Position numbers and translations under genes: made by a program. From contig CAZTMO010000001.1 in the NCBI GenBank assembly GCA_964615105.1, forward strand, positions 1-26,882: DNA of 26,882 nt. Reading direction: 5' to 3'. Under the pieces are notes generated by a model, which was not told the DNA's origin, made no database searches, and saw only the letters and a program-made list of their open reading frames with translations. This document shows positions 3,082 through 26,882 of this stretch, piece by piece. The DNA comes from an uncultured Thermoleophilia bacterium. GTDB taxonomy: Bacteria; Actinomycetota; Thermoleophilia; UBA2241. Each line of letters begins with the position of its first letter. The stretch's first letter is position 1.

Positions 3082-3103
3082 AACGGATGCGATTCTATCA
3101 GGC

Positions 3104-3864: not shown

Positions 3865-3867
3865 TGC

Positions 3868-5265: not shown

Positions 5266-5511
5266 TCATCCGCCGCCCAACGGCGCCACGAACGTGACCA
5301 CGGCGCCGTCGTGCAGCACGTGATCGTCGCCGATCGGCTGACCGTCGAGCAACGCGATGCGCCCGACCTCAGTCGGCATGCCCAAGGCATCGACCACGGC
5401 AGACAGCGGCGCCTCGCGCCCCGCCACGTGCACCACGACCGAGCCCTCTCCGCCGGCTCCCGGCGGGAGAAAGGCGCGATGGCCGCCAAACAGCACCGCC
5501 GTCACGTGCAC
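5266..5511 (-). CDS. moaD: MoaD/ThiS-family sulfur-carrier protein (copy 1)
   Basis: GTG 5511 lies 6 nt after AGGAGG. The 81-aa ubiquitin-like protein ends VTFVAPLGGG with the C-terminal Gly-Gly. The symbol is family-level only. Confidence 0.85.
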   Translation of the reverse strand: MHVTAVLFGGHRAFLPPGAGGEGSVVVHVAGREAPLSAVVDALGMPTEVGRIALLDGQPIGDDHVLHDGAVVTFVAPLGGG

Positions 5512-5602: not shown

Positions 5603-5995
5603 TCAGGCGGGCCTTGTCGGAGGGTACTCCGGGTACGAGAACACGTACACCATACTCATCGGCTCCGCGCTGTCGTTGACCACCCCGTGGGGCACGCCCG
5701 CGGGGATCAGGACACCCTGGCCGGCCCGGTATGAGACGCACTCGTCGCCGATCGAGAGCTTCCCCTCGCCCTCCACGATGTAACACAGCTCGTCCACCTC
5801 GTGGACCATCTGGTTGGTGTTGGCGCCCGGCTGCCACGTCGAGAACCCAAGCATCGTCGCCGAGGCGCCGTTGAGCGGGCCCGAGACCAGCTCGCACACC
5901 CAACTGCCGTCCGGCAGGTCGGTCCGCTTGCCCTCGCTGACGTCGACCACCTTGACGCGCTCGGTCCAGCGCGCAGCGTCCGCGTTCTTGTCCAT
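5603..5995 (-). CDS. Cupin-domain protein (monocupin)
   Basis: 130 aa with motif 1 GANTNQMVHEVDELCYIVEGEG and motif 2 GQGVLIPAGVPHGVVN. The ATG abuts the stop of the upstream gene. Confidence 0.88.
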   Translation of the reverse strand: MDKNADAARWTERVKVVDVSEGKRTDLPDGSWVCELVSGPLNGASATMLGFSTWQPGANTNQMVHEVDELCYIVEGEGKLSIGDECVSYRAGQGVLIPAGVPHGVVNDSAEPMSMVYVFSYPEYPPTRPA

Positions 5996-6997
5996 TCAGA
6001 TCACCAGCGCTCCGTCCTTGATGAGCATGCGCCCTTCAGCCTCGAGGCTGATGTTGCGCAGACAGCCGTCCAGGTGCAGGGCGCTGTGGCTTTGACCTCC
6101 GGGGTAGCAGTGCGCGTTGTCGCCGAGGGCGAAGTGGATCGTGCCGAGCAGGCCCTTCTCGGAGGCCGAGCCGCTCGGCGACTTCGTGCTCGTGCCCATG
6201 GCGAACTCGGCGACGACGTTGGCGTTCTCGTCCGAGCCGGCGACGACCGCCTTGAGGCGCTCGGCCTCGACACCACCTGAGATCTCGACCGCGCGACCGT
6301 CCTTGATCACCCACTTGATGGGCTCGCTGAGCGACCCGAACACGCCCACGCCGAGCATGATGCCGTCAACGACGATGATCCCCTCGGTCTTGTCTTCGAC
6401 GGCGGCGTAAGCGACCTCACCCCACAGCGGGACTGGCCCCATCATCTCGCCAGCGCCCTTGATCGGGACGACCTTGAGCGCCGGACGGTCCTTGATGCAG
6501 ACCTTCACGTCCGTGCCGGCCGGGTTGGTCACGCGGACCCACTCGACGCCGTCCAGTGCCGCCATCAGCTTCTCTGTTCTGGCGACGGTCTCGAGGATGT
6601 CGTCCTCGGTGAGATCCCAGTCAGCCATGCCCTCTTCGATAGACCCGATCTTGGCGCCGTTCTTGACGCTGGCGGCCACCGGGTTGACGTGCGCGAACCG
6701 GTTGGCCCACTCCAGGTTCGTGGTGATGATGATGACGTCGGACGCCTCCATCGCCGCGGCGAGGTTCTTGGCCGGCTCCATAGGGACTTTCATCGACGCC
6801 AGAGCTGCGCTCACATGATGCGAGACGTCGGCGACGACCGGGTACGCACCGAGCGACACGGCGACCCCGGCCACCGCCTCGGCTTCGCGGCGGTGATCCT
6901 CGTCGCAGATGATGAGCACCGCGTCGCCCGCCTTGACGGTGAAGCAGGTCTCCACTACCAGCCGGGCGCCCTTGATGAGCGTCGTGTAGGACTTCAC
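5996..6997 (-). CDS. M29-fold (aminopeptidase T / AmpS-like, short type) metallohydrolase
   Basis: The start is probably GTG 6997, 6 nt after AAAGGGG. Motifs: VKAGDAVLII, VRVTNPAGTDV, PLWGEVAYA, EGIIVVDG, VAEFAMGT, SEKGLLGTIHFALGDN and LHLDG. Confidence 0.8.
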   Translation of the reverse strand: MKSYTTLIKGARLVVETCFTVKAGDAVLIICDEDHRREAEAVAGVAVSLGAYPVVADVSHHVSAALASMKVPMEPAKNLAAAMEASDVIIITTNLEWANRFAHVNPVAASVKNGAKIGSIEEGMADWDLTEDDILETVARTEKLMAALDGVEWVRVTNPAGTDVKVCIKDRPALKVVPIKGAGEMMGPVPLWGEVAYAAVEDKTEGIIVVDGIMLGVGVFGSLSEPIKWVIKDGRAVEISGGVEAERLKAVVAGSDENANVVAEFAMGTSTKSPSGSASEKGLLGTIHFALGDNAHCYPGGQSHSALHLDGCLRNISLEAEGRMLIKDGALVI

Positions 6998-7064
6998 AGC
7001 CAACCCCTTTCAGACCTTCGCTCGTGGGAGACGCGCCGCCCGCGACCCCCCTCCTCTCTCCGGC

Positions 7065-9404
7065 TCACTCCGCTGCCCGCTTCTTTCGCAGCGCCTCAAG
7101 CACTCTCTCGCGCGTCATCGGCAACTCATGCAGACGGATGCCCACGGCGTCGTAGACGGCGTTGGCGATGGCCGGCGCGGTGGGAACGAGGCCGGGCTCA
7201 CCGATACCCTTGGCCCCGAACGGTCCTTTCGTCCCGATACTCTCGACGCAGATGGCCTGCACTTCGGGCATATCGCCGATGTTGGGGATCTTGTAGTCGA
7301 GGAACCGGTCGTTGACGATCCTGCCGTTCTCGTGGACGAGCTCTTCCATGAGAGCGAAGCCGATCCCCTGCGCGACTGAGCCTTCGATCTGACCCTCGGC
7401 CATCGTCTGGTTGATCGTCGTTCCCGTCTCGTGCGCGGCCACGACCTTGAGCACCGTGACTTGACCGGTCTCCGGGTCGACCTCGACTTCGGCTGCCTGC
7501 GTGCCGAACGAGAAGTTGGGGATGTTCTTGGCGAAAGCCGTCGGGATCGTGTATCCCTCGGGCAGGCGGTCGACGAAACGACCCTTGCCCGAGATGGTGA
7601 TGCCGTGCTCGTTGACGGAGTGGTTCACGATCTCGGAGAGGTCGTGCTTCTCCGCCGCACCCTTCGCCCAGATCTTGCCGTCCTGGACAAGGACGTCCTC
7701 GGGAGCGACCTCGAGCATCTCGGCGGCGGCAGCGACGAGATTGCGCCTCGCGTCTTTCGCGGCAGCCAGGACGGCGTTGCCGTCCATGAAACTCGCGCGG
7801 CTCCCCCAGGAGCCCAGGTCATACGGCGTGAGCTCGGTGTCGTGGGAGAGGACCCTGATCGCACTGAGAGGCACGCCGAGCTCCTCGGCGGCGATCTGCG
7901 CCATCGCGGTGTGGGCACCCTGTCCCATGTCGAGAGCTGACGTGATCAGCGCCACCGTGCCTTCGTCGGAGAGCTTGACGAACGCCTCGGCCGAGTTGTA
8001 GCCGTAGAAGCGACCGCCGCCGCCGGTGTGGACCATGTTGGCCAAGCCGACACCACGCAGCGGCGTCCTGCCCTCAGGAGCTCTCTTCTCCGCCCATCCG
8101 ATGCCGTCGGCCGCCGTCTGCATACACTCCGTCATGGCGCAGCCGCAGACCTCGGCGCCTGTGTGCGTGGTCTGCATGGGCTCGTTGGCGTTCTTCATGC
8201 GCAACTCGAGCGGGTCCAGACCCATGCTCTCGGCGAGCTCGTCGATCTGGACCTCGGTCGCGAACGCTACCTGGGGGTTGCCGAAGCCGCGGAACGCCGT
8301 GCCCATCTGCTTGTTGGTGTAGACCAGCTCGCCGTGAAAGCGCACGTTAGGGACGTTGTAGAGCGTGCCGAACATCATGCTCGAGAAATTGACGGTGGCC
8401 GGTCCCTTGTCGTGGTACGCGCCCGCATCGCCGATGAGCGTGAGATCTCGCACGAGGATGCGCCCGTCTTTGGTCCCTCCGGTCTTGAGATGCAGCTTGT
8501 ACGGGTAGCGCGTCTTGCTGGTGGTGAACTCCTCGCTGCGGGTATTGACGATGCGCACCGCACGGCCGGTGATCCGCGAAAGGATCGCGGCGATGGGCAG
8601 CTTCATGTCCATGACCAGCCTGGATCCGAACCCGCCGCCCATGGATGAGTTGATCACCCGCACGTGGCTGAGCGGGACGTCGAGCACGCGGGCGATCTCC
8701 TGACGCTGCGTGTGTGGCGCCTGCGTCGTGGTCCAGATCGTCACGCGGTCGTCGACGTCCCACTTGGCGACGCAGTTGGAGGTCTCGAGACAGGTGTGCG
8801 CGACCTGGTGGGTGACATACGTGCCCTCCACCACGTGGTCGCATTCCTCGAAGGCCTTGTCGGGATCGCCAAAGAGGCGATCGACGCTCCACGTGGCGTT
8901 GCTCTCCTTGTCCTCGTGAACGAGGGGTGCGTCCGGCTTCATGGCCTCGTCGACGTCGAAGACGGCCGGCAGCGGCTCGTAGTCCACCACGATGAGCGAG
9001 AGCGCCTCCTCGGCCGTGTCCTCGTCGATCGCGGCTACGGCGGCCACTTCATCGCCAACGTAGCGCACCTTGTCGGTGCAGAGGATGTGCTTGTCGGCCA
9101 GGAACTGATAGAAGCTGAACTTGGTGTCGGGAACGTCGTCCGCCGTGATGACGGCGCGCACTCCCTTGAGGCGCCTCGCCGCCGCCGTGTCGATGGACCG
9201 GATCCTCGCATGAGGATGGGGACTGCGCAGGATCTTGCCGATGAGCATCCCCGGCATGTGATGGTCGCCGGTGTACTTCGCCTCGCCGCAGACCTTGGGG
9301 ATCGCGTCGATACGCGGCAGGCGCTGGCCGATGATCGTCATCTCTCTCTCGACGACCTCGGTCTTCACGTCTGTCTTCACGTCGGTCTCCACGTCGGATC
9401 TCAT
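7065..9404 (-). CDS. Xanthine dehydrogenase-family molybdopterin-binding large subunit (CoxL/XdhA-like)
   Basis: Start refined to ATG 9404, an ATGA overlap with the small-subunit stop. Motifs: RIDAIPKVCGEAKYTGD, GKILRSPHPHARI, MGGGFGSR, AFRGFGNPQ, DMGQGAHT, GSWGSR, EGQIEGSVAQGIG and GPFGAKGIGEP. Confidence 0.95.
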   Translation of the reverse strand: MRSDVETDVKTDVKTEVVEREMTIIGQRLPRIDAIPKVCGEAKYTGDHHMPGMLIGKILRSPHPHARIRSIDTAAARRLKGVRAVITADDVPDTKFSFYQFLADKHILCTDKVRYVGDEVAAVAAIDEDTAEEALSLIVVDYEPLPAVFDVDEAMKPDAPLVHEDKESNATWSVDRLFGDPDKAFEECDHVVEGTYVTHQVAHTCLETSNCVAKWDVDDRVTIWTTTQAPHTQRQEIARVLDVPLSHVRVINSSMGGGFGSRLVMDMKLPIAAILSRITGRAVRIVNTRSEEFTTSKTRYPYKLHLKTGGTKDGRILVRDLTLIGDAGAYHDKGPATVNFSSMMFGTLYNVPNVRFHGELVYTNKQMGTAFRGFGNPQVAFATEVQIDELAESMGLDPLELRMKNANEPMQTTHTGAEVCGCAMTECMQTAADGIGWAEKRAPEGRTPLRGVGLANMVHTGGGGRFYGYNSAEAFVKLSDEGTVALITSALDMGQGAHTAMAQIAAEELGVPLSAIRVLSHDTELTPYDLGSWGSRASFMDGNAVLAAAKDARRNLVAAAAEMLEVAPEDVLVQDGKIWAKGAAEKHDLSEIVNHSVNEHGITISGKGRFVDRLPEGYTIPTAFAKNIPNFSFGTQAAEVEVDPETGQVTVLKVVAAHETGTTINQTMAEGQIEGSVAQGIGFALMEELVHENGRIVNDRFLDYKIPNIGDMPEVQAICVESIGTKGPFGAKGIGEPGLVPTAPAIANAVYDAVGIRLHELPMTRERVLEALRKKRAAE
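9361..9396. repeat. Three-copy 12-bp tandem repeat in the 5' end of the molybdoenzyme large-subunit gene
   Basis: GTCTTCACGTCT / GTCTTCACGTCG / GTCTCCACGTCG, which encodes DVET-DVKT-DVKT on the minus strand. Confidence 0.8.
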
Positions 9405-9886
9405 CGTGACGTCACCTCCTCGCGAAGGTGGTCTCCCGCGGCCTTGACGGCCTCGATGATCTTCACGTAGCCGGTGCACCGGCAGAGGTTGCCCCGCAGC
9501 CCTTCGAGAATCTGTTCCCGGCTGGGATCGGGATTGCGATCGAGCAAGGCCTTCGCCGACATCACCATGCCGGGGGTACAGAAACCGCACTGGATGGCGC
9601 CGTGCTCGACGAAGGCACGCTGTACAGGGTCGAGCGAGCCCCCGCCGGCCAGACCTTCGATCGTCGTGACCTCGCGACCGTCGGCCTCGTGAGCAAGCAT
9701 GAGGCAGGAGTTGACCGGCTGACCGTCGAGCAGCACCGTGCAGGCTCCACACTCGCCCTGGTTACAGCCGTTCTTGGTACCTGTCAAGCCGATGTCTTCG
9801 CGGATGATCTCGAGGAGGGTGCGATGGGTGTCTACGAACAGGTCGTACTCGTCCCCGTTGACCGTTATGTGCAGCTCTCGCTTCAC
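9401..9886 (-). CDS. 2x[2Fe-2S] small subunit of a XDH-family molybdoenzyme (CoxS-like)
   Basis: [28 protein letters not shown] and GNLCRCTGY. The GTG start overlaps the FAD-subunit stop (GTGA). Confidence 0.96.
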
Positions 9887-10764
9887 CCTCGTCCTCCGTT
9901 CGTGACCCAGCCCTGCGCCGCTGTGAGGACGCGCCGCGACATGACCTCCACCAGCACCCGGCGGTACTCCGCCGAGGCGCGGATATCGTCGATGGGGCGT
10001 GACTCCTCGACCGCTTTGGCGGCCGCCGCCGCGATCACGACCTCGTCCAGCTCTCTACCGATCAGCGACGCCTCGGCGGCGCGCGCCCGCATGGGTGTGG
10101 GGGCGACGGCGCCCAGAGCGAGGCGAGCCTCGCGTACGACGACCGACCCCGGCTCGAAGGCGGCGAACAACGCCACGCCGACCGTACAGCAGTCCATGGC
10201 CGAGCGGAACGTCTTCAGATATGTGGCGAAGCTGTCCTGGGGCACGGCCGGCACGCGGACTGCCTTCAGCAGCTCGCCGCACCGCAGAACGGTCTGCCCG
10301 GGCCCCGTGAAGAAGTCCTCGAGCGGGACGACGCGTTCGTCGCTGCCATCGGTGAGAACGGCCTTGGCATCCAGGGCGATCAGGATCGCCGCCATGTCGG
10401 CTGACGGTGCGGCATTGCAGAGGTTCCCCCCGATGGTCGCCCGGGTGCGCACTTGCACCGAGCCGATCCAGGAGGCGGCCCGTGCGATCGCAGGGAAGCG
10501 CTCCATGACCTCAGGTGAATGCTCGATCACGCCGAGCGGCGTGACCGCTCCGATGGCGACGCCGCCTTGGGCGTCCGCCTCGATGAAGTTGAGGCCGGGC
10601 ACGTCACGAAGGCTCACGACCACGTCGGGACGCAGCCCGGCCGCCCTCACCTGTACGAGGACGTCTGTGCCTCCGGCCAAGGCCAGTGCGGAGCCGTTCG
10701 AGCCGGCCAGCACGTCGCAGGCCTCCTTGAGCGAACTCGGACGCGCGTAGTCGAACGCTCTCAT
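9883..10764 (-). CDS. FAD-binding medium subunit of a XDH-family molybdoenzyme (CoxM-like)
   Basis: Start refined to ATG 10764 (MRAFDYARPSSL). Motifs: LAGGTDVL, IGSVQVRTRATIGGNLCNAAPSAD, ALGAVAPTP and IDDIRASAEYR. Confidence 0.95.
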   Translation of the reverse strand: MRAFDYARPSSLKEACDVLAGSNGSALALAGGTDVLVQVRAAGLRPDVVVSLRDVPGLNFIEADAQGGVAIGAVTPLGVIEHSPEVMERFPAIARAASWIGSVQVRTRATIGGNLCNAAPSADMAAILIALDAKAVLTDGSDERVVPLEDFFTGPGQTVLRCGELLKAVRVPAVPQDSFATYLKTFRSAMDCCTVGVALFAAFEPGSVVVREARLALGAVAPTPMRARAAEASLIGRELDEVVIAAAAAKAVEESRPIDDIRASAEYRRVLVEVMSRRVLTAAQGWVTNGGRG

Positions 10765-10789
10765 TGAATCAGCTCCCGTCCGCGGCCTG

Positions 10790-12016
10790 TCATGCCGACC
10801 GGGTCGCCACGCCGGCGCGCGTGTTCTCGATCGGCGCTTCGACCATCGTGATCGCCTCGCGGGCGCACAGGAAGTAGCAGACGGCGCAGGAGTAGCAGTC
10901 CTTCGGCTTGACGAGGACAGCCTTCTTGTCGCGGATCTCGATGCACTCGCAGTGACCCGGCGCGGCGCAGAGACCACACCCGTTGCACTTCTCGAGGTCG
11001 ATCTCGGGGAGCATCGGGATGTAGTGCACCTCGCCCGGGGTGACGATGTACTTGAGAGCGATTCCGCGCATGTCCGCCAACGTCTCGTAGCCATTCTCGT
11101 CCATGAACTTGCGCATGCCGGGCTCGATCTTGGCGAACGCCTTGTAGCCCTTCAGGTAGAGGAGCGAGCAGTACGTGAGCACGGTGGCGCCGTACATGAT
11201 CATCTCCACGGAGTGGCGCCAGTTCATGAGACCGCCACCGCCGGCCAGCGGCAACGTCGGACAGATCGTGCGCATCTGCGCGATATGGCGGTAGGCGAGC
11301 GGCCGGATCCACGGGCCGCAGAGCCCGGCGAAGGACTGGTTGTCGGTCGACGGGTACATCGGCGTGCCGCCGTTCTTGATGTTGAGCGGCGGCAACGACT
11401 GCGGGCAGTTGATGGCCGACACCGCAGCCGCGCCGTTCTTCTCCACCGAACGCGCCACCATCATGGTGTTGGCCTCTGGGGTCATCTTCGGCATCACGGG
11501 GATCTTCACCGCATCGGCCACGGCCTTGCAGACCTGACCGGCCAGTGCCGGGTCCTTGCCTAGGGTGGCGCCGAGCTCGGGCTCTTCGTCGACACCCATC
11601 TGCTTGGCCATGAGCCCCAGGTTCGGACAGCTCATGTTGAGCTCGAGCATGTCGGCGCCGGCCTCTTCGAGCATGCGCGCCAACTTGGCCCAGCCCTCGA
11701 GGTCCTCACCAGGGCCCATCATGTTGGCGATGATCTTGAGCTCGGTCTGCTCCTTGCACTGCTGGATGAGCTCCTGCGTGTCCTCCACGCGCATACGCTC
11801 GCCCGACGGTGAGTAGAAGGCGCCTTCCTTCTCGATGATGTGATAGGGACGCGCGTACAACGGGACCTTGAGAAAGGTGAGCTTCGTGCTGACGGCCGAA
11901 GCGCCGTTCTCCTCAGCCCACTTGATCTTCTCGACCTTGTTCGTCAACTCGGACGAGGCGATGATGAATGGATTCTTAAGCTTGAGGCCTGCGAAGTCGA
12001 CTGACAGGTCAGCCAT
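10790..12016 (-). CDS. preA: PreA-like FMN TIM-barrel oxidoreductase (dihydroorotate/dihydropyrimidine dehydrogenase family) with C-terminal 2x[4Fe-4S] domain
   Basis: Start ATG 12016 after GAAGGGGGAG. Motifs: LSVDFAGLKLKNPFIIAS, LELNMSCPN (active-site loop Cys), PKMTP, SAINC, GLCGPWIRPLA, LAGGGG, CNGCGLC...HC and CYSCAVCYFLC. The symbol indicates similarity, not proven function. Confidence 0.85.
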   Translation of the reverse strand: MADLSVDFAGLKLKNPFIIASSELTNKVEKIKWAEENGASAVSTKLTFLKVPLYARPYHIIEKEGAFYSPSGERMRVEDTQELIQQCKEQTELKIIANMMGPGEDLEGWAKLARMLEEAGADMLELNMSCPNLGLMAKQMGVDEEPELGATLGKDPALAGQVCKAVADAVKIPVMPKMTPEANTMMVARSVEKNGAAAVSAINCPQSLPPLNIKNGGTPMYPSTDNQSFAGLCGPWIRPLAYRHIAQMRTICPTLPLAGGGGLMNWRHSVEMIMYGATVLTYCSLLYLKGYKAFAKIEPGMRKFMDENGYETLADMRGIALKYIVTPGEVHYIPMLPEIDLEKCNGCGLCAAPGHCECIEIRDKKAVLVKPKDCYSCAVCYFLCAREAITMVEAPIENTRAGVATRSA

Positions 12017-15550: not shown

Positions 15551-15552
15551 GC

Positions 15553-16701: not shown

Positions 16702-16731
16702 CGATCCCCCAGTCATCAGACTCTTGTCTTA

Positions 16732-16759
16732 AGCATAGTCTATCGTCCAGTATTATGAA
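16732..16759 (-). promoter_or_regulatory. Candidate internal sigma70 promoter (TTCATA-N16-TATGCT) for the adh-to-cupin genes
   Basis: An AT-rich patch overlaps the gntR stop, with -35-like TTCATA at 16754-16759 and -10 TATGCT at 16732-16737. The predicted start is near 16725, about 25 nt upstream of the adh ATG. Confidence 0.5.
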
Positions 16760-17715: not shown

Positions 17716-17742
17716 GTCCGTACTCCTGCCCCCATGAGGGCG

Positions 17743-18027
17743 TCAGCCCCCGCCCAGCGGCACGATCACCCGCAGCTCCGCCTCGTCGCGCACGACGGCG
17801 TCGGCGGCGACGCGCTCGCCGTCCAGCGTCAGAAAGGTCCTGCCTTCCTGCGGGACGGCGAGCACGTCCAGCACGTCGTCCACCGTGCTGCCGCGCTTCA
17901 ACTCCACGACCGTCCGACCCCGGTCTTCAGGCGGCAGCAGGCTCGCGTGATTGCCGAACAGCACGACCCTGACGCGAACGGTGTCAGCACCGGTCGGCTC
18001 CTGCGCCTGGCGGAGATGCTCGGCCAT
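17743..18027 (-). CDS. moaD: MoaD/ThiS-family sulfur-carrier protein (copy 2)
   Basis: 94 aa ending RVIVPLGGG, immediately downstream of AOR paralog A. The symbol is family-level only. Confidence 0.88.
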   Translation of the reverse strand: MAEHLRQAQEPTGADTVRVRVVLFGNHASLLPPEDRGRTVVELKRGSTVDDVLDVLAVPQEGRTFLTLDGERVAADAVVRDEAELRVIVPLGGG

Positions 18028-18033
18028 CGAACG

Positions 18034-19839: not shown

Positions 19840-20246
19840 GAGGCACCTCCCCAGGTGAGCGCCCCTTCGGGACACCACTTGACACAGAGCGGATCACCGT
19901 CGCACAGGTCGCAGATCATGATGCGCCTGTCGACGGCGTCCTGGTGGACGTTCGGGCAGGCGTCGAGACAGGCGCCGCAGTCGGTGCACTCCTCCTGGAT
20001 GAAGCGCACGACGCCGGCCTCCTCGTCCCAGACGAGCGCTTCCTGCGGGCACGCGTCGACGCAGACTCGCTCGTGCGTCATGTCACAGACGGAGCACTGC
20101 ATGGGCCCAAGGTGGATACCCGGCTGTCGCGAGACCTGGATGCACGCCCCGGATGGCTGAACGCGGCCAAGCTTGTTCAGCGAGCACACGCCCGAGCACA
20201 TATCGCAGGCGATGCACTTCTCGACATGGAACTCGATGTAGTTCAT
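19836..20246 (-). CDS. 4x[4Fe-4S] electron-transfer subunit (DmsB/AorA-like)
   Basis: Start ATG 20246 (MNYIEFHVEK). 136 aa with CIACDMCSGVC, CSVC...CVDACP, CTDCGACLDACP and CDLC...CVKWCP. Translationally coupled to AOR paralog A. Confidence 0.93.
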   Translation of the reverse strand: MNYIEFHVEKCIACDMCSGVCSLNKLGRVQPSGACIQVSRQPGIHLGPMQCSVCDMTHERVCVDACPQEALVWDEEAGVVRFIQEECTDCGACLDACPNVHQDAVDRRIMICDLCDGDPLCVKWCPEGALTWGGAS

Positions 20247-20262
20247 GTGTGGTCTCTCCCTG

Positions 20263-21432
20263 TCAGACTTGGTCGAGCTCCGCGAGAAACGCATCGACTC
20301 CGGCGCCCACGTCGGCGCGGGAGCCCATCTCGTTGAGGCAGTCCCCCAGCGCCGTGATGGCGAGAAGGCCGTACGCCGGGCTGCAGGTGCGTCCCATGTG
20401 GCCGAGTCGGACGAGCTTTCCGTAGATGGGGGTGTTGAAGAGGCTCCCCGAGATGAGCACGCCGAACTTCGCGACCATCCGGTCACGCAGCTTCTCATCA
20501 TCGACGCCGTCCGGAACGGCGACGGCGGTGGCCACATTGCACGCGTGCGCCTCGGTGTCGGGCCAGAGCTCGAGCCCCATCGCCTTGACGCCGGCCCGCG
20601 TGGCACGCGCCACCTCGGCGTATCGCCGGAAGTGCTCCTCGTGGCCCACCTCGAGGTACTCGCTCACCGCGGCGTTGAGGGCCGGCACCTCTGAAGTCGA
20701 GGTCGTGTACGGCCAGATCTCCTTCTCGAGCCAGAGCTCTTTCCAGTCAAGGATGCTGAAGTACGAGTAGCGGTTCGGCCGTTTGACAGTGCGGAAGAGC
20801 TCCCACGCGGCGTCGGAGATCGCCATGGCGCTGAGGCCGGGCGGCGCCCCAAGGACCTTCTGTGAGCCGACGGAGACGATGTCGATGCCCCACGCATCGA
20901 CCTCTACGGGGACGCTGCCGGCGCAGCTCACGGAGTCGACGAACACGAGCTTGCCATACTGCTTGCCCAGCTTGGCCAGGGTCTCGAGGTCAGATTGGGT
21001 GCCGCAGGGCGTCTCACAATGCACGAGCCAGAGGATCTTGGCCTCGGGATGCGCCTTGAGGACCGCCTCGAGCTGTTCCGGCTCGACGACGGTGTTCCAG
21101 TCGGTCTCGACCGGGATCGCCTTGGCGCCATACTTCTCGAGGAAGTAGCGGTTGCCCTCGCCGTAGTGCCCGCTCTCGATGTTGATCACCACGTCGCCCT
21201 CGTCGAGGCCGCAGAAGGAGATGGCCTCGAGTCCGAGGAGGGCCTCGCCCTGCATCATCACGATGTCGTTCTTCGTCTTAAGGAAGGCCTTGAACTTCTC
21301 CTGCGTGTCACGGAAGAGCTCCATGTAAGGCTGCGAGTAGTCGAAGAGCAGTTGCCCGCCGAGGGCGGAGCGGACCCTGTCCGAGAGCTCGACCGGCCCC
21401 GCAGTCATGATGAAGTCGATAGATCGGGTCAT
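20263..21432 (-). CDS. ppaT: Pyridoxamine:pyruvate aminotransferase-like protein (fold type I, class V)
   Basis: ATG 21432 lies 8 nt after AAGGAAGG. Motifs: TAGPV, LFDY, QGEALLGLEA, SGHYG, LKAHPE, HCETPCG, VDSVS, SQKVLGAPPGL, SILDW and GKLVRLGHMG. These match the M. loti PPAT sequence as I recall it better than AGXT/PucG (GSG-type motif). Class V membership is near-certain and the specific function is inferred. Confidence 0.8.
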   Translation of the reverse strand: MTRSIDFIMTAGPVELSDRVRSALGGQLLFDYSQPYMELFRDTQEKFKAFLKTKNDIVMMQGEALLGLEAISFCGLDEGDVVINIESGHYGEGNRYFLEKYGAKAIPVETDWNTVVEPEQLEAVLKAHPEAKILWLVHCETPCGTQSDLETLAKLGKQYGKLVFVDSVSCAGSVPVEVDAWGIDIVSVGSQKVLGAPPGLSAMAISDAAWELFRTVKRPNRYSYFSILDWKELWLEKEIWPYTTSTSEVPALNAAVSEYLEVGHEEHFRRYAEVARATRAGVKAMGLELWPDTEAHACNVATAVAVPDGVDDEKLRDRMVAKFGVLISGSLFNTPIYGKLVRLGHMGRTCSPAYGLLAITALGDCLNEMGSRADVGAGVDAFLAELDQV

Positions 21433-21467
21433 ACCGAACACCTTCCTTCGTTAAGTGGGTGACGGGC

Positions 21468-22403
21468 TCACCGCTGACCGCGCACGAACGGGATGGCGAG
21501 CGCCGAGGGCAGCATGCTGTGTCTCGCGAAGAGCGCCAAAGCCGCCATCACGGCGACGAACGGCAGCATCTGGACCAGGTCGGTGGAGATGTTGATGCCC
21601 ACCAACTGCAGGGCGGTGGCGATGGAAAGCGCGACACCGAACAGCAGCGATCCGATGAGCACCCATACCGGGCGTCCACGGCCGAGCATGGCGATCACGA
21701 TCGCGATGAAGCCGTAGCCGCCCGTCATGAACGGTACGAATATCCCGGCCGTCACGATCGCCATGTAACCGCCACCCAGGCCGGCCAAGGCTCCGGTGGA
21801 CAGCGCCGCGACGGTGCGGATCTTCAAGACGTCCACGCCGGCGTTGTCGAGCGCGACGGGCTTCCAGCCGGCGGCCCGGATGTTGAGGCCGAGGTTGGTC
21901 TTGTACAACATCCACCCGATCACGAAGATCAGGGCGAAGCCGATGTACACGATCAGCGGCTGGCTGAAGAGGCTTGGTCCCAACACCGGGATCCGCTCCA
22001 GCCCGGGAATCCCCAGGGTCGGCACGTTGTCGAGGCGAGGGTAGCTCTCGCCGAACTGCACCTGGTGAAGCAAGCTCGTGAGCCCTTCCATGGCGAGCAG
22101 GATGGCGATACCGACGACGATCTGGTCACGGCCCATGCGCACGCAGAAGACGACCATGAGCAGCGAGACCGCCATGCCGGCGAGGACCGCCGCCGCGAAG
22201 CCCAACCATGACGAGCCCGTCCAGTTGGCGGCCACGAACCCGAAGTAGGCGCCGAGGAGCATCATGCCCTCAAGGCCGATGTTGAGCAGTCCGGCTTGTT
22301 CCGAGATCGTCTCGCCGAGGGCGGCAAGGAGCAGCGGCATGCCGGCGAGGACCGCGCCCGTGATGACGGCGGCCACGAACTCAGTGGTCCAGAGCTCACC
22401 CAT
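21468..22403 (-). CDS. CUT2/nucleoside-type ABC transporter permease 2
   Basis: ATG 22403. Motifs: PLLLAALGETISEQAGLLNIGLEGMMLLGA, NIRAAG...AGVDV and GYGFIAIVIAMLGR. Multiple hydrophobic segments. Confidence 0.93.
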   Translation of the reverse strand: MGELWTTEFVAAVITGAVLAGMPLLLAALGETISEQAGLLNIGLEGMMLLGAYFGFVAANWTGSSWLGFAAAVLAGMAVSLLMVVFCVRMGRDQIVVGIAILLAMEGLTSLLHQVQFGESYPRLDNVPTLGIPGLERIPVLGPSLFSQPLIVYIGFALIFVIGWMLYKTNLGLNIRAAGWKPVALDNAGVDVLKIRTVAALSTGALAGLGGGYMAIVTAGIFVPFMTGGYGFIAIVIAMLGRGRPVWVLIGSLLFGVALSIATALQLVGINISTDLVQMLPFVAVMAALALFARHSMLPSALAIPFVRGQR

Positions 22404-23559
22404 TGCCGACGACCTCCTCGCGCCCGGGCGGGACGGGGTCACGGTCCTCAGCCGCCACCGCCTGTCCCTTGTCGGCCTTCTTGAACCAGCCTCGCGTGCG
22501 AGCCCATTCGGTGAAGACCATGAAGAAGAGGATGAGTCCCACGAGAAGCAGGAGGAAGTCGTTCGGCAGTCCCGCCTGTCGCGCCGCCTCGTGCCCGCCG
22601 ATCTGGATCACGGCGAAGAAGAACACGAAGGGGATCACCACCATGACATTGAGCCCGGCGAGAAAGACGATGGCGAACAGCGTCATGCCGAATGCCGGGT
22701 TCCAGTCGGAGCGCACGTAGCCCCACACTCCCAACACCTCGACGGCAGCGGCAAGTCCGATGAGCGCGCCACTCAGGGCGAACGCGGTGATGATGTCGCG
22801 CTTCACGTTGATGCCGGCGTGTACCGCGGCCTTGGGGTTCAGTCCCAGCATGCGCAGCCGCAGGCCGTACCCCGTCCGGGTCTGCATGTAGTGCACGATC
22901 GCCAACACGACCAAGGCGATGACGATGCCGATGTGGATGCGCGTCCCGGGTATGTACGGCAGAAGCTTCTCGAAGGGGATGACGTCGGTCTGGGGCATGA
23001 ACGCCTGCGTCGTCAGGAACGGCCCCTTGATCAGCATGTTGGCGAGATTGATGCCGACGTAGCTCATCATGAGGACGCTGATGATCTCGTTGATGCCGTA
23101 GTAGGCCTTGAGCACCGACGGGACGACGGTCCACGCCCCGCCTACCGCGAACCCGATGACGCACAGCAGGATGAGGGCCAGCCAGACGGGCATGGCGTTG
23201 GTGAACGGGACCCCGAGCCCGCCGATGATCGCCGCAGCCATGAGGAACTGCCCGTCACCGCCGATGTTCCAGAGCCCGGCCTGAAAGGCGACGATGAAGC
23301 CCGCCGACATCAGCAGCAGGGGTGCGAGACGAATGATCGTCTGCATCAATCCACTCCACGTGAACAGGCCGCTCTGGAGCGTGGTCACATAGAAGGCGAT
23401 GGGGTCTTTGCCCAAGACGAGCAGAAGCACGCCCCCGGCGATGAGGCCGTAAACGACGGGCGCCGCCACTCTCCAGAACGCCTTGGCCGCGCGCAGAGCC
23501 GCGGGCGCCTCGGTCGAGACCTGGACGGGCAACAGCGTCCCTTCAGCCATGTCACTCAC
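22396..23559 (-). CDS. CUT2/nucleoside-type ABC transporter permease 1
   Basis: GTG 23559 lies 8 nt after GGAGG (alternative ATG 23550). Motifs: GLWNIGGDGQF, GINEIIS, GYGLRLRMLGLNPKAAVHAGIN and ALSGALIGLA. Confidence 0.93.
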   Translation of the reverse strand: MSDMAEGTLLPVQVSTEAPAALRAAKAFWRVAAPVVYGLIAGGVLLLVLGKDPIAFYVTTLQSGLFTWSGLMQTIIRLAPLLLMSAGFIVAFQAGLWNIGGDGQFLMAAAIIGGLGVPFTNAMPVWLALILLCVIGFAVGGAWTVVPSVLKAYYGINEIISVLMMSYVGINLANMLIKGPFLTTQAFMPQTDVIPFEKLLPYIPGTRIHIGIVIALVVLAIVHYMQTRTGYGLRLRMLGLNPKAAVHAGINVKRDIITAFALSGALIGLAAAVEVLGVWGYVRSDWNPAFGMTLFAIVFLAGLNVMVVIPFVFFFAVIQIGGHEAARQAGLPNDFLLLLVGLILFFMVFTEWARTRGWFKKADKGQAVAAEDRDPVPPGREEVVGNG

Positions 23560-25237
23560 CCTGGCCGCCTCCAATCATCAGGGCGCCGATCTCCTGCTCC
23601 GCGCCGGATTTGTTCTGCACGATCCCCATGAGACGGCCGCGCGACAGGACGGCGATCCGATCGCAGAGCACGAGCAGCTCTTCGAGATCGGTGGAGATCA
23701 CCAGGGCTCCGGCGTCGCCTGTGTCGGCAAGCTGTCGGATCCGGGAGCGCACGGCGTTGGTCGTCTTCACGTCCAGACCGTACGTGGGTTTGTTGAAGAC
23801 CACGACTTTGGGATCGAACGAAAGCTCGCGAGCCAGCACCACCTTCTGCACGTTGCCGCCCGAGAGGGACCCGGCGTGCGTGTGGATGGTCGGAGTCATG
23901 ATGTTGTACTCACGCACGAGCTCGTCGGCGTTGGCGTCGATGGCTTCGAACCGCGTCCGTCCCCCGACCCAGAACGGGGCCATGCCGATGCGCTTGGTCA
24001 CCATGTTCACGGCGACACTGAGCGGCCCGACGATGCCTTCGTTGAGGCGGTCGTCGGTGACGTAGCGCAGGCCGTGCCGTTGACGAGCCTTGATACTGAG
24101 CCTGCGCATGGATCTGCCGTCCAGCCGGATGTCGCCGCCGTCAAGCCTTCGCTGCCCGGCGATGGCCTCGGCCAAGGGCCGCTGACCGTTACCGTCGACG
24201 CCGGCGACGCCGACGACCTCGCCAGCGTGCACCGTGAGGTCCAGCGCCTCGTCGATGCCGATCTCGCCACGGCCTCCTGTCACCATGACGCCCTCCAGCT
24301 CGAGCAGAGGCTGGCCGCCGCTCTCGGTTCGCCCGGCGGCGCCGCCCAATTCGGAGAGGTCGTGCAACTCGGCGACATTGGCGAGGCTCTCGGCCTCGCC
24401 GGGGAACATGAGGTTCACGACCATGGCGTGGAGATCCTCGTGCGACGAGCGCCGCATGGTGTCGCCGTCGATGGTCCCTTCCAGACGACCTTGACGCAGT
24501 ACCGATACACAATCGCCGATGGCGAACGCCTCGCGGAGCTTGTGGGTGATGAAAATGACTGCGAGGCCTTCCTTCTTCAACTGCACGATCACGCGTTCGA
24601 GGTCCTCGATGCCCTTGGGGGTCAGCATGGACGTGGGCTCGTCCAGGATCAGCACCTTCGATCCCTGCCACAGCGCCTTGAGGATCTCGACCTGCTGCTG
24701 CTGCCCCAGAGAAAGCTCCTGCACGACGGTGTCTGAGTCGACCTCCACCCCGAGGGTCGCCGACAACCGCGCCAAACCCTCCTCGGCCTTCTTCACACTC
24801 AGTCGCACCCCCTCGCCTTGCCCGAGCATGAGGTTCTCGAGCACGGTGAAGGTGGGGATCAAGCTGCTGTGCTGGTGGACCATCCCGATGCCGAGCTCGA
24901 TCGAGTCGCGCGGGCAGCTGATGCAGACCTCCTCGCCGCACACGCGAATGCTGCCTTCGTCGGGCTGGTAGATGCCGGCCAACACGTTCATCAACGTCGA
25001 CTTGCCGGCGCCGTTCTCTCCCAGCAGGCAATGGACTTCGCCCTGCCGAACCAGCAGGTTGACGCAGTCGTTGGCGCGCACCCCGGGAAAGATCTTGGTG
25101 ATGCCGCAGAACTGGATCGCGACGATCCTGTCGTCGCCGTTCCCACCCGGAGCTGCCTCGACGGGGCGGGCGGGCGCGGTCCCGAGACCGCGCCCGCCCG
25201 CCCCGTCGCTCTCGCGAGAGACGGGGGCCATCGTCAC
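23552..25237 (-). CDS. CUT2-type ABC transporter ATP-binding protein (two fused NBDs)
   Basis: Walker A GENGAGKST, GMVHQH, LSLGQQQ and ILDEPT. The second, degenerate NBD has LSGGNVQK and FNKPTYGLD. GTGA overlap with the bmp stop. Confidence 0.95.
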   Translation of the reverse strand: MTMAPVSRESDGAGGRGLGTAPARPVEAAPGGNGDDRIVAIQFCGITKIFPGVRANDCVNLLVRQGEVHCLLGENGAGKSTLMNVLAGIYQPDEGSIRVCGEEVCISCPRDSIELGIGMVHQHSSLIPTFTVLENLMLGQGEGVRLSVKKAEEGLARLSATLGVEVDSDTVVQELSLGQQQQVEILKALWQGSKVLILDEPTSMLTPKGIEDLERVIVQLKKEGLAVIFITHKLREAFAIGDCVSVLRQGRLEGTIDGDTMRRSSHEDLHAMVVNLMFPGEAESLANVAELHDLSELGGAAGRTESGGQPLLELEGVMVTGGRGEIGIDEALDLTVHAGEVVGVAGVDGNGQRPLAEAIAGQRRLDGGDIRLDGRSMRRLSIKARQRHGLRYVTDDRLNEGIVGPLSVAVNMVTKRIGMAPFWVGGRTRFEAIDANADELVREYNIMTPTIHTHAGSLSGGNVQKVVLARELSFDPKVVVFNKPTYGLDVKTTNAVRSRIRQLADTGDAGALVISTDLEELLVLCDRIAVLSRGRLMGIVQNKSGAEQEIGALMIGGGQGE

Positions 25238-26334
25238 TGCCCTGAAGCGATGAGGTCCTTGACTTGCTTACCCTTCGTCAGCTCGGGCACCTCGACGCTG
25301 CCGTCCAGGATCCCGGCCTTCGCGTTCTCGCAGGCCGTCCAGACGTCGTCGGGGATGTACTCCGTGTGCAGCAGCCCCATGCCGTTATCGAGGTCGAGGT
25401 AGAAGCTCGCCTCGCCCATGGTCCCGGCCTCGTAGTCCTGAAGGGCTTTGGTCATGAGCGGCGCCCAGTCCCACAGCACCGACGAAAGCAAGACGCCCTT
25501 CTTGTCGGTCGGCGACTTGTCGCCGATCACGTCGATGAACCAGACCTTGTCGGCGCCCTTCGGCGGGGTCGCGGTCTCGACCGCCTGCATCATTCCGAAC
25601 GAAGCACCATCGCCCATGCCGAAGATGATGTCGGCGCCACCGGAGATCGCGCTCGCGGTGACGCGCTTGCCGCCCGCGGCGTCGGCATAGGCAGCCTGGC
25701 CGATCTGCACATAGAGGATCTTCGTGTCGGGAGCGACCGAACGCACGCCGGCCACGAAGCCGCCCGCCTGCTTGGACCAGTTGAGGTCTTCTGCCGACAC
25801 GACGATCGCGACCGTGCCCGACTGCGTCATCTTGCCCGCGAGAACGCCGGCGAGGTAGCCGCCGTGCTCTCCTCTGGTCTCCATGGCCTGCACGAGCTGC
25901 GGGACGTTGACTTCCTCGTTGCCCGGGTCGCTCGCCGTCACAGGAATGTCGAGCGTCTTGGCCATCTTAGGGCCGACGGTGTTGTAGCCGCTCGCCCACG
26001 GGAAGATGACCTCGGCGCCGGCGGAGGCGCCCTGCTCCATGATCGGCGTGTTGTCGCCGTAGCCCGCCCCGTCCTGAATGATCAGCTCGGCGCCGATCGC
26101 CTCGGCAGCCGCCTTGGCGCCTTCCACACCCTGCTGGTTCCAGCCGTAGTCGTTACCCTTCTCAGGGGTGATCACGGCGACTTTGGTAAGCTCGACGCCG
26201 GCGGCCGGCGACTCAGCGGCACCACCCGTATCGTCACTGCGGCCGCCGCAGCCGGCGACCAGCGCGATCATGACCGCGAGCACCATCAGGGCGACCAGAA
26301 GTCCGCTCAGCCGAAAGAACTTGCTGCTCTTCAT
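25234..26334 (-). CDS. BMP-family (PnrA/Med-like) ABC substrate-binding lipoprotein
   Basis: Signal peptide with lipobox LVAGC, NDYGWNQQG, GYLAGVLAG, GGFVAGV, GADIIFG and WFIDVIGD. It is the first gene of the cluster. Confidence 0.92.
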   Translation of the reverse strand: MKSSKFFRLSGLLVALMVLAVMIALVAGCGGRSDDTGGAAESPAAGVELTKVAVITPEKGNDYGWNQQGVEGAKAAAEAIGAELIIQDGAGYGDNTPIMEQGASAGAEVIFPWASGYNTVGPKMAKTLDIPVTASDPGNEEVNVPQLVQAMETRGEHGGYLAGVLAGKMTQSGTVAIVVSAEDLNWSKQAGGFVAGVRSVAPDTKILYVQIGQAAYADAAGGKRVTASAISGGADIIFGMGDGASFGMMQAVETATPPKGADKVWFIDVIGDKSPTDKKGVLLSSVLWDWAPLMTKALQDYEAGTMGEASFYLDLDNGMGLLHTEYIPDDVWTACENAKAGILDGSVEVPELTKGKQVKDLIASGQ

Positions 26335-26763: not shown

Positions 26764-26882
26764 TCAGCGCGGGCGGCGCAGCATGTAGTCGGTCACGGCT
26801 GCCAGCTCAGTGGTGTCGCCGGGCAGTGCGGCGAGGCGCTCGATGGCGCGCGCGTGGCTCTCGCGCGCCCGACGGCGAGCGC
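26764..26882 (-). CDS. ispA: C-terminus of a polyprenyl (farnesyl/geranylgeranyl) diphosphate synthase, 5' part outside the window
   Basis: Hand translation gives ...ARRRARESHARAIERLAALPGDTTELAAVTDYMLRRPR* with TGA at 26764-26766. This resembles the IspA terminal helices, and ispA normally precedes dxs. Only 38 residues are visible. Confidence 0.7.
   Translation of the reverse strand, partial: ARRRARESHARAIERLAALPGDTTELAAVTDYMLRRPR

Follow-up and report, generated by a model that had tools for sequence, protein, structure and literature searches.

A predicted vitamin B6 catabolic gene cluster built from anaerobe-type enzymes in an uncultured Thermoleophilia bacterium

Can the pyridine ring of vitamin B6 be dismantled without molecular oxygen? 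To our knowledge, the established routes of B6 catabolism all come from aerobes, in which the ring is opened by an oxygenase. The question is raised by an operon-like cluster of about 21 kb in an uncultured Thermoleophilia bacterium, which we analysed within a contig stretch of 26,882 nucleotides, hereafter the window. The cluster joins a putative B6 importer and an aminotransferase resembling pyridoxamine–pyruvate aminotransferase (PPAT) to two aldehyde:ferredoxin oxidoreductases (AOR1 and AOR2), a UbiD-family decarboxylase, a molybdoenzyme and a metalloenzyme with the fold of the dioxygenase NicX. We consider it, with a probability of roughly 0.6, to be a catabolic island for unphosphorylated pyridoxamine and pyridoxal, and possibly pyridoxine, that is built from anaerobe-type catalysts. 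The full-text literature (subscription papers not covered) yielded no anaerobic or oxygenase-free B6 catabolic pathway, in agreement with the initial annotation of this DNA, which knew of no such gene cluster, and it yielded neither papers linking these enzyme families to B6 nor any account of what becomes of B6 in sediments, wetlands, digesters or guts. Only the classical aerobic enzymes are cited in a 2026 preprint on B6 catabolites.

We tentatively propose the following route. A Bmp-type ABC importer would bring in the B6 vitamer, and the PPAT-like aminotransferase would convert pyridoxamine and pyruvate to pyridoxal and alanine. AOR1, together with a 16-Cys ferredoxin, would oxidise the 4-formyl group to give 4-pyridoxate, an iron-type alcohol dehydrogenase (Fe-ADH) would oxidise the 5-hydroxymethyl group, and AOR2 would turn the 5-formyl acid into 3-hydroxy-2-methylpyridine-4,5-dicarboxylate, from which UbiD, with prenylated flavin mononucleotide (prFMN) from UbiX, would remove one carboxyl group. 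A molybdenum (Mo) enzyme of the xanthine dehydrogenase (XDH) family could then hydroxylate the ring next to its nitrogen without O2, as in nicotinate fermentation, and a PreA-like enzyme could reduce a C=C bond of the pyridone, possibly with ferredoxin reduced by the AORs. The NicX-fold metalloenzyme would open the ring hydrolytically, and a cupin and an M20 deacylase would process the N-acetyl product. The gene order parallels the order of these proposed steps. Every substrate, the order of the steps from ring hydroxylation onwards and the freedom from an O2 requirement are what we infer. The steps from transamination to decarboxylation are probably right as written, and we lean to the same degree towards a route that is O2-independent throughout.

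The probable substrate of the cluster

Gene identities were assigned with Pfam and NCBIfam, applying the NCBIfam equivalog cutoffs, and solved relatives were sought by sequence search of the PDB. An exact search of public assemblies for the window aminotransferase returned no match. The best NCBIfam match of this protein is the PPAT family NF046070 (EC 2.6.1.30), at 344.6 bits (E 5.5e-103) over model positions 6–368 of 369, with the next family at 160 bits. Its best PDB match is the PPAT of Mesorhizobium loti (2Z9U, 1e-80; next match 9e-46), with which it shares 37% identity. Homologues in two related loci (L012 and L083; other loci are numbered likewise) reach 433 and 420 bits against NF046070. 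Across an alignment of 11 sequences, comprising the window protein, M. loti PPAT and nine homologues, Glu68, Thr146, Asp171, Lys197 and Arg345 are invariant. We take Glu68 to be the residue that blocks the pocket for the phosphate of pyridoxal phosphate and gives PPAT its specificity for the free vitamer. In the PPAT structure of Yoshikane et al. from 2008, Lys197 reportedly forms the Schiff base, and Arg345 and Arg336 are said to bind the carboxylate. The wide margin in both databases and the retention of Glu68, Lys197 and Arg345 bear out the PPAT-like identity given in the initial annotation. One PPAT-like homologue, from an Anaerolineae bin, adjoins a contractile-injection-system locus with no catabolic cluster, so PPAT-like genes alone are not diagnostic.

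The transporter genes adjoin the PPAT-like gene, and the four subunits each find their best match in the families NF047927–NF047930, with runner-up families below half the score. The binding protein reaches 371.6 bits over its full length against NF047927 ('putative B6 ABC transporter substrate-binding protein') and the ATPase 676.5 bits, above the cutoff of 670, against NF047930 ('putative B6 ABC transporter ATP-binding protein'). The subunits are 47–62% identical to the transporter in the characterised Mesorhizobium B6 cluster (Bmp protein 47%, permease subunit 1 type 59–62%), values above that for the aminotransferase. There, the Bmp-type transporter lies between a 3-hydroxyacyl-CoA-dehydrogenase-type gene and genes for a metallo-beta-lactamase, PPAT and an SDR protein, an order that presumably corresponds to that of the M. 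loti genes encoding the dehydrogenase of 5-formyl-3-hydroxy-2-methylpyridine-4-carboxylate (FHMPC), 4-pyridoxolactonase, PPAT and pyridoxal dehydrogenase. A B6-type transporter is also present in L086–L089 and in nine metagenome loci.

Sister clusters in other lineages carry further genes of B6 metabolism. FHMPC-dehydrogenase-like genes score 325 bits in L083 and 340 bits in L089, where generic models reach 268 and 274, and a 4-pyridoxolactonase-like gene in the Chloroflexi locus L088 scores 291 bits, with the next family at 148. Alanine dehydrogenase, which would recycle the alanine formed by PPAT, is encoded in L009 and L088. B6 bears two one-carbon side chains, and the two conserved groups of AOR orthologues together with the alcohol dehydrogenase suit a substrate of that kind. 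Taken together, these features make vitamin B6 the likely substrate, and we hold this with good confidence.

A different heteroaromatic compound with aminomethyl, hydroxymethyl or formyl substituents, such as the pyrimidine moiety of thiamine, a 5-hydroxymethyl pyrimidine or an aminated furan, would demand that the PPAT-like enzyme and the Bmp transporter had been recruited from B6 metabolism. Nucleosides are the usual ligands of Bmp-family binding proteins, the reductase resembles dihydropyrimidine dehydrogenase (DPD), the best solved relative of UbiD acts on furan dicarboxylate, and all but one of the B6-specific models are matched below cutoff. Such a recruitment has nevertheless to contend with the co-occurrence, across lineages, of PPAT, 4-pyridoxolactonase-like, FHMPC-dehydrogenase-like and Mesorhizobium-type transporter genes with the same enzyme set, with the invariance of Glu68, and with a ring-opening candidate that has the fold of a pyridine-ring enzyme. 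Moreover, the two one-carbon side chains suggested by two AOR groups and an alcohol dehydrogenase are a feature of B6 that the pyrimidine of thiamine lacks. We regard a substrate other than B6 as quite unlikely.

Layout of the locus, and predicted side-chain oxidation and decarboxylation

All real genes within the cluster span share one strand (Table 1). Long spurious open reading frames (ORFs) are common because the window has 65–70% G+C, and the real genes were told apart by codon-position G+C, for which the cluster genes show the pattern of real genes, with a third-position G+C of 0.82–0.92. After refinement of the starts, start and stop codons overlap or abut at ten junctions, among them ATGA or GTGA overlaps at the ferredoxin/AOR1, AOR2/UbiD, FAD/2Fe-2S and 2Fe-2S/Mo boundaries, and the M29-like and cupin genes abut directly. 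The initial annotation had described a co-directional, largely translationally coupled cluster with UbiX nearby and with no recognisable flavin monooxygenase, oxidase or Rieske oxygenase. ORF analysis, Pfam and NCBIfam agree with the whole of its gene list, the ten junctions justify its wording on coupling, and neither Pfam nor NCBIfam matched any ORF of the window to the three excluded enzyme classes. To that inventory we add the 16-Cys ferredoxin, a GntR/UTRA regulator and two MoaD/ThiS-like ORFs. The G+C content of the cluster (6000–25000) lies 2–5 points below that of the left flank (1–5000), and a DXP synthase gene is also found in the flanking DNA.

Each of these families alone has common housekeeping roles and a regulator gene sits in mid-cluster, as might be expected if a nucleoside importer, an aldehyde detoxification unit, a purine/pyrimidine module and a peptidase had come together by chance. 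The set and order recur, however, in 17 genome loci and across phyla, as well as on metagenome contigs, and together with the ten overlapping or abutting junctions this recurrence leaves a chance juxtaposition hardly credible.

Table 1. Coordinates of the cluster and of the other features in the window, with the basis of each assignment
Feature	Position	Strand	Basis or remark
Cluster span	5603–26334	−	~21 kb, operon-like, uncultured Thermoleophilia
Bmp/PnrA-family substrate-binding lipoprotein	25234–26334	−	Pfam Bmp; lipobox LVAGC
ABC transporter ATPase, two ATP-binding domains	23552–25231	−	NF047930
ABC permease, B6 permease subunit 2 type	22396–23550	−	NF047929
ABC permease, B6 permease subunit 1 type	21468–22403	−	NF047928
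PPAT-like class-V aminotransferase	20263–21432	−	NF046070, PDB 2Z9U
Ferredoxin-like Fe-S protein, 136 residues	19836–20246	−	Pfam Fer4 families
AOR1	18034–19839	−	AFOR_N + AFOR_C, 8e-121
MoaD/ThiS-like small protein, 94 aa, ends GGG	17743–18027	−	Translation
GntR/HutC-type (UTRA) regulator	16753–17715	−	Pfam GntR + UTRA
Fe-ADH, iron-type alcohol dehydrogenase	15553–16701	−	Pfam Fe-ADH
AOR2	13658–15550	−	AFOR_N + AFOR_C, 3e-121
UbiD-family prFMN-dependent decarboxylase	12009–13661	−	TIGR00148
PreA-like reductase, DHO_dh domain + 2x[4Fe-4S]	10790–12016	−	NF006183
FAD subunit, XDH-family molybdoenzyme	9883–10764	−	Pfam FAD_binding_5 + CO_deh_flav_C
2x[2Fe-2S] subunit, XDH-family molybdoenzyme	9401–9886	−	Pfam Fer2_2 + Fer2
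Molybdopterin subunit, XDH-family enzyme	7065–9404	−	Pfam Ald_Xan_dh_C, MoCoBD_1, MoCoBD_2
NicX-fold / M29-like metalloenzyme	5996–6997	−	Pfam M29; PF26233 NicX (precomputed)
Single-domain cupin	5603–5995	−	Pfam Cupin_2
Second MoaD/ThiS-like ORF, ~81 aa, ends GGG	5266–5511	−	Six-frame translation, start candidates, tblastn
M20 (ArgE/DapE-like) amidohydrolase, convergent, outside cluster span	3868–5253	+	Pfam M20
Hypothetical lipoprotein-like ORF	3104–3706	−	No family match; flank
UbiX flavin prenyltransferase, outside cluster span	2482–3081	−	TIGR00421
Partial TlyA/FtsJ-like rRNA methyltransferase	2–502	−	Flank
C-terminal end of upstream gene	26766–26882	−	Flank

The ferredoxin carries its 16 Cys residues in four cluster motifs of the 4x[4Fe-4S] type, its stop codon overlaps the start of AOR1, and the order PPAT–ferredoxin–AOR1 is kept across phyla; it is the probable electron-transfer partner of AOR1. 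Both AORs lie nearest to true AORs rather than to BamB, GAPOR or WOR5 in Pfam and the PDB: the best match of AOR1 is 1AOR (6e-125), with BamB-type proteins far weaker, and the matches of AOR2 are likewise of the AOR type. A BamB-type ring reductase role was rejected for both on this ground. Their Cys motifs read CxxCxxxC in AOR1 and CxxxCxxxC in AOR2. The two proteins are 36% identical, divergent as the initial annotation had stated, and each has its own orthologues elsewhere, that of AOR1 in L083 and L089 (53–54% identity) and a separate one of AOR2 in L083 (51%). By homology, AOR1 would be a tungsten-type aldehyde:ferredoxin oxidoreductase acting on pyridoxal to yield 4-pyridoxate, and AOR2 a second such enzyme converting the 5-formyl group to the 5-carboxylate. 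Between the two, Fe-ADH is predicted to oxidise the 5'-CH2OH of 4-pyridoxate to 5'-CHO. L083, L089 and many metagenome loci have an FHMPC-dehydrogenase-like gene in the cluster, and no Fe-ADH homologue was seen in them.

The two MoaD/ThiS-like ORFs are paralogous, the first following AOR1 and the second following the cupin, and both positions are conserved in relatives; for the second, tblastn finds matches downstream of the cupin in L002–L004, L007, L010 and L011, and Pfam gives weak matches to Ub-Mut7C (20.3 bits) and TGS only. Both are probably pterin-cofactor maturation factors, and their presence in the locus is only suggestive of a tungsten-pterin cofactor in the AORs. The regulator gene occupies a matching position in relatives. 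An AT-rich stretch (16702–16760, in a genome of 67% G+C) follows the regulator gene and immediately precedes the Fe-ADH gene; it contains the palindrome AGACTCTTGTCT at 16718–16729 and may represent an operator or an internal promoter. A search for operators gave weak palindromes only; one AGAC-N4-GTCT site falls within this AT-rich stretch, and two matches where 0.4 were expected are not significant alone.

UbiD exceeds the cutoff of TIGR00148 (253.5 against 244.85 bits), and its best PDB match is the furan-2,5-dicarboxylate decarboxylase HmfF (6H6X, 8e-57), a sensible model for the decarboxylation of a pyridine-4,5-dicarboxylate to the monocarboxylate that we predict here. UbiX, which would make the prFMN for UbiD, likewise passes its cutoff (TIGR00421, 176.8 against 108.9 bits), and the M20–UbiX pair downstream of the cupin is kept in L101, L105 and L140. 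In sister clusters, a different type of UbiD or a gene of the class-II aldolase family occupies this place. The window UbiD belongs to a subtype with a long C-terminal extension, of which homologues with 48–58% identity occur in hundreds of genomes, including the Pelotomaculum bin PtaB and many Alphaproteobacteria, sometimes with UbiX, without the cluster. Of these, the homologues in 63 genomes (L018–L080) have, apart from UbiX or a Mo-enzyme subunit now and then, none of the cluster genes as neighbours and are uninformative on this pathway.

Proposed ring activation and ring opening

The PreA-like protein scores 225.6 bits against the PreA model NF006183, matches the FMN domain of DPD (1GT8, 4e-31) and has two [4Fe-4S] motifs. 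It carries the segment ELNMSCPN, which we take to be the active-site Cys loop of DPD, and is 63–67% identical across phyla; no PreT partner is found in the window or in the sister clusters. We expect this flavin/Fe-S enzyme to reduce a ring C=C bond.

The Mo subunit is closest to the alpha subunit of 4-hydroxybenzoyl-CoA reductase (best PDB match 1RM6, 5e-145), with nicotinate dehydrogenase subunits also among its solved relatives (3HRD, 2e-87). The FAD subunit is XdhB-like (227.5 bits), matches the 4-hydroxybenzoyl-CoA reductase beta model only in two pieces and below cutoff (113 against 404.55 bits), and has no Cys cluster motif in its sequence. Since it thus lacks the [4Fe-4S] insertion of the reductase, we discarded a dehydroxylase role of that type and read the Mo enzyme as a hydroxylase, which would act next to the ring nitrogen. 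In L001 a block of about 3.3 kb (16534–19890) between the Mo subunit and the NicX-like gene encodes YqeC, MocA, a putative XdhC-like protein and YqeB, and the spacing at this place is equally large in L002–L007 and L012. These genes are the maturation set of selenium-dependent Mo hydroxylases. The Mo subunit of the window is intact despite the missing YqeC/MocA/YqeB block.

In several loci a third AOR-family protein replaces the Mo enzyme (L009–L011 at about 12800–17040, L088 at 5717–10022, L106, L110 and L128). This protein is 32–33% identical to AOR2, L088 also has a ThiS-like ORF, and a large CCG-domain (GlpC/HdrD-like) Fe-S protein lies beside the third AOR in the variants without a Mo enzyme; the two may constitute another, tungsten-based module for activating the ring. 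The way in which the ring is activated may therefore vary from one cluster variant to the next. The C6 hydroxylation that the initial annotation assigned to the Mo enzyme is plausible for the window, and the absence of the enzyme from some variants means that it is not required everywhere.

The protein that we propose to open the ring matches the M29 family in Pfam (PF02073, 41.9 bits, gathering threshold 27) and is about 80 residues shorter than M29 aminopeptidases (AmpS/PepS/AmpT), of which the metal ligands are Glu/His/His/Asp. A PDB search with the single sequence returned no match, and a nine-sequence profile gave marginal matches only. An AlphaFold2 model, made with database homologues, has a pLDDT of 92, and its best Foldseek match is NicX (7CN3, TM 0.79, E 6e-23), ahead of M29 peptidases (TM 0.65). 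The fold of the model ties the cluster to pyridine-ring cleavage. The window protein and NicX are of the same size and 21% identical in sequence. The Fe(II) ligands of NicX are His265, Ser302, His318 and Asp320. Aligned to these positions are Glu264, Ala290, His308 and Asp310 in all homologues examined, so that the first two are replaced and the last two kept. Glu264 aligns with Glu319 of the M29 peptidase PepS, and His288, an extra His as in M29 peptidases, is invariant in the homologues together with His308 and Asp310. A ligand set that differs from that of NicX favours a metallo-hydrolase acting on a reduced pyridone, enamidase-like in role. The enzyme thus probably opens the ring by hydrolysis, and ring opening is likely to be independent of O2. 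The initial annotation called this protein an M29 hydrolase; its fold proves closest to the NicX dioxygenase, and its ligand set points to a chemistry other than that of NicX, probably a hydrolytic one.

The alternative that bears on this step retains B6 and the same upper pathway, and lets the Mo enzyme form a 2,5-dihydroxypyridine-type intermediate that the NicX-like protein cleaves with O2, which would make the whole a hybrid route suited to microoxic habitats. No solved structure matches better than NicX, Pfam assigns the family to NicX, and chemical reasoning indicates that hydroxylation of a 3-hydroxypyridine next to the nitrogen gives a 2,5-dihydroxypyridine pattern. A Mo hydroxylase and NicX are, in addition, a known pairing in nicotinate and 3-hydroxypyridine pathways, which counts for oxygenolytic cleavage, as does the presence of homologues with 50–59% identity on Gaiellaceae-type and soil contigs without AOR, UbiD or PreA. 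The ligand residues are identical in the anaerobe-type and Gaiellaceae-type homologues. Against oxygenolytic cleavage stand the exchange of H265 for Glu and S302 for Ala, the extra invariant His, the alignment of the Glu with that of PepS and the low identity to NicX. The gene also keeps company with tungsten AORs, ferredoxins and Hdr/GlpC-like Fe-S proteins in Deltaproteobacteria, Thermodesulfobacteriota and Anaerolineae bins, and a reductase candidate, superfluous for a NicX-type route, is adjacent in 29 of 30 loci. On balance we judge oxygenolytic cleavage unlikely and retain hydrolysis as the preferred reading of this step.

The cupin adjoins the NicX-like gene in 28 of the 30 metagenome loci of at least 9 kb, and no informative solved relative emerged from the PDB search; isomerase, decarboxylase and hydrolase are candidate roles. 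The M20 protein scores 184 bits against TIGR01892, below cutoff, and its gene has the same position and orientation in L004, L007, L009, L010, L014, L017 and several metagenome loci. It is a candidate deacetylase of an N-acetyl ring-cleavage product.

Several points weigh against a B6 pathway of this kind. All the substrates are read from sequence. The aminotransferase falls well below the NF046070 equivalog cutoff (344.6 against 600 bits), and Arg336 of PPAT is not conserved, being Leu in the window protein and variable in others; for these two reasons we call the protein PPAT-like rather than a proven PPAT. The binding protein (371.6 against 400 bits for NF047927) and the permeases of subunit 2 type (399.1 against 400 for NF047929) and subunit 1 type (434.8 against 465 for NF047928) also miss their cutoffs, and the 'putative B6' label of the transporter is a curator's inference; we know of no experiment showing that a member of NF047927–NF047930 binds a B6 vitamer. 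The PreA-like protein lies below the NF006183 cutoff of 335 bits, and the Mo subunit reaches no NCBIfam family cutoff (4-hydroxybenzoyl-CoA reductase alpha, 682 against 994.55 bits). The window lacks the maturation block of its closest relatives, with about 60 bp (7004–7064) between the Mo subunit and NicX-like genes, and the Mo enzyme is missing from L009–L011, L014, L016 and L088, so that in such variants it is dispensable or encoded elsewhere in the genome. Of the proteins structurally related to the ring-opening candidate, only the O2-dependent dioxygenase NicX has been characterised, and the cupin keeps a possible His/Glu/His metal site, which could in principle use O2. Of the initial annotation's overall proposal, a B6 cluster of anaerobe-type enzymes stands with the support of PPAT, the Mesorhizobium-type transporter and the B6 genes of the sister clusters, and is qualified by the NicX fold of the ring-opening enzyme and a Mo enzyme that is not universal.

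Distribution and comparison with known systems

A scan with UbiD as query, using one genome per species, found the full arrangement in 17 loci only, with UbiD identities of 72–90%; apart from one short contig with a Clostridiales label, all belong to bins of uncultured Thermoleophilia/Actinomycetota. A second search, starting from PPAT-like and NicX-like homologues, uncovered independent forms of the cluster, in bins of Deltaproteobacteria and of Chloroflexi as well as on two further taxon-unassigned contigs, which is the kind of synteny in other genomes that the initial annotation had proposed to look for. Orthologues are shared across phyla at 51–54% identity for both AORs, 63–67% for PreA, 52–67% for the Mo subunit and 61–67% for the NicX-like protein. 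The Deltaproteobacteria locus L083 encodes an AOR2-type enzyme, SSF and ECF transporters, an Amidohydro_2 protein, a PPAT-like enzyme, the ferredoxin, an AOR1-type enzyme, a PreA-like protein, UbiD, an FHMPC-dehydrogenase-like protein, the NicX-like protein, the cupin and the Mo enzyme with its three subunits. Variants of this set are found in L088, L089 and L090.

ECF systems are typical vitamin importers, and that of L083 has its own S component (5874–9171); the same locus encodes a sodium:solute symporter (3581–5071) with the pantothenate symporter PanF as best match, and L090 has a TRAP system (20246–21005). The 240-residue Amidohydro_2 protein, which has no NCBIfam match and is absent from the window, recurs beside PPAT or a transporter (L083 9224–9955, L085 11158–11880, L087 12888–13628, L089 15280–15993) and may be a lactonase or a decarboxylase. 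Lower-pathway proteins (PreA-like, Mo subunits, NicX-like) are 60–74% identical to homologues in other phyla (L083 and L088–L090), with 41–46% for PPAT and 38–43% for UbiD, which suggests that the lower-pathway module spread horizontally.

A metagenome scan with a NicX-like profile covered 30 loci of at least 9 kb with 10-kb flanks. The reductase candidates beside the NicX-like gene comprise 21 PreA-like and eight luciferase-like proteins, the latter possibly F420-dependent. A decarboxylase is present in 26 loci (eight of the window UbiD type, 12 of a second UbiD type and six of the class-II aldolase family, to which the M. loti decarboxylase belongs) and a Mo enzyme in 22. Three non-homologous or distantly related decarboxylases at one position are what would be expected if the step, and not the protein, were conserved. 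At least one B6 marker lies within the flanks in 16 of the 30 loci; in loci of the window type PPAT is more than 10 kb from the NicX-like gene and so falls outside the flank searched.

Three architectures can be distinguished: the window type of Thermoleophilia, a second anaerobe type in other phyla, and a Gaiellaceae/soil type that lacks AOR, UbiD and PreA. The last (L086, L087, L146, L147, L150, L153, L161 and L167) combines a luciferase-like oxidoreductase, the NicX-like protein, the cupin, a class-II aldolase-family decarboxylase and the Mo enzyme with a 4-pyridoxolactonase-like gene, the B6 ABC transporter and PPAT, and no MHPC-oxygenase-like gene was in view at these loci. Its luciferase-like protein could be either a reductase or an O2-using monooxygenase. 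Extending the proposal to complete O2-independent mineralisation of B6 in anaerobes of several phyla, with tungsten AORs acting on pyridoxal and formyl-pyridoxate, UbiD on a pyridine dicarboxylate and a NicX-fold enzyme opening the ring hydrolytically, has in our view slightly less than even odds. On this extended reading the NicX-fold hydrolase would be the counterpart of the NicX dioxygenase that works without oxygenolysis, and might be related to it by descent. If the cluster works as proposed, it would show where a vitamin scavenged by many microbes goes under anoxic conditions, provide new physiological substrates for tungsten AORs and UbiD, and add a new reaction to the NicX/M29 fold. 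It would also be a clear case of a single pathway reassembled from non-homologous enzymes to match the available oxygen. A PPAT-like protein, the NicX-like protein with its cupin, a PreA-like or luciferase-like reductase candidate and a decarboxylase would serve as a marker set for B6 degraders in metagenomes.

The closest comparison is with the aerobic B6 pathway I of M. loti MAFF303099 and Pseudomonas sp. MA-1. The window shares with it a PPAT-type first enzyme, a Bmp-type transporter, a GntR-family regulator and, by prediction, the series of intermediates as far as the 4,5-dicarboxylate, along with the decarboxylation of the latter; the sister clusters share 4-pyridoxolactonase-like, FHMPC-dehydrogenase-like and class-II aldolase-family decarboxylase genes. 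Pyridoxal 4-dehydrogenase, the lactonase, FHMPC dehydrogenase, MHPC oxygenase and AAMS hydrolase were not found in the window, which instead encodes two AORs with a ferredoxin, Fe-ADH, UbiD/UbiX, the Mo hydroxylase and the PreA-like, NicX-fold and cupin proteins.

For the fate of the ring, the proposed logic is that of nicotinate fermentation in Eubacterium barkeri: Mo hydroxylation next to the nitrogen, reduction by an Fe-S flavoprotein and hydrolytic opening, performed there by nicotinate dehydrogenase, 6-hydroxynicotinate reductase and enamidase. The Mo enzyme of the window's relatives is probably selenium-dependent. In contrast to E. barkeri, the reductase of the window is PreA/DPD-like, the ring opener has a NicX/M29 fold rather than being an amidohydrolase-superfamily enamidase, genes for downstream B12-dependent mutases are absent, and the substrate needs prior side-chain oxidation and decarboxylation. 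Pseudomonas putida NicX itself (2,5-dihydroxypyridine 5,6-dioxygenase, 7CN3) shares the context of pyridine catabolism with a Mo hydroxylase, whereas the window protein occurs in anaerobe-type clusters.

The AORs match those of Aromatoleum aromaticum (AorABC, 8C0Z) and Pyrococcus (1AOR) at 1e-103 to 1e-125, and the order of a multi-cluster Fe-S subunit, AOR1 and a MoaD-like gene is presumably that of the aor operon. Unlike AorABC, the window has no AorC-type FAD/NAD subunit, devotes two paralogues to one pathway and has pyridine aldehydes as proposed substrates. Finally, the hydroxymethylfurfural (HMF) pathway of Cupriavidus basilensis (HmfF/HmfG and HmfABC) also uses UbiD/UbiX on a heteroaromatic dicarboxylate, followed by an XDH-family hydroxylase, and its dicarboxylate likewise arises by oxidation of hydroxymethyl and formyl side chains; the HmfF structure 6H6X is from Pelotomaculum. 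The window differs in having no CoA ligase, in its aminotransferase and B6-type transporter, in AORs that replace the oxidase, and in a ring that every marker indicates to be pyridine. The strategy proposed here is a combination of known kinds, joining elements of B6 pathway I, nicotinate fermentation and the HMF pathway.

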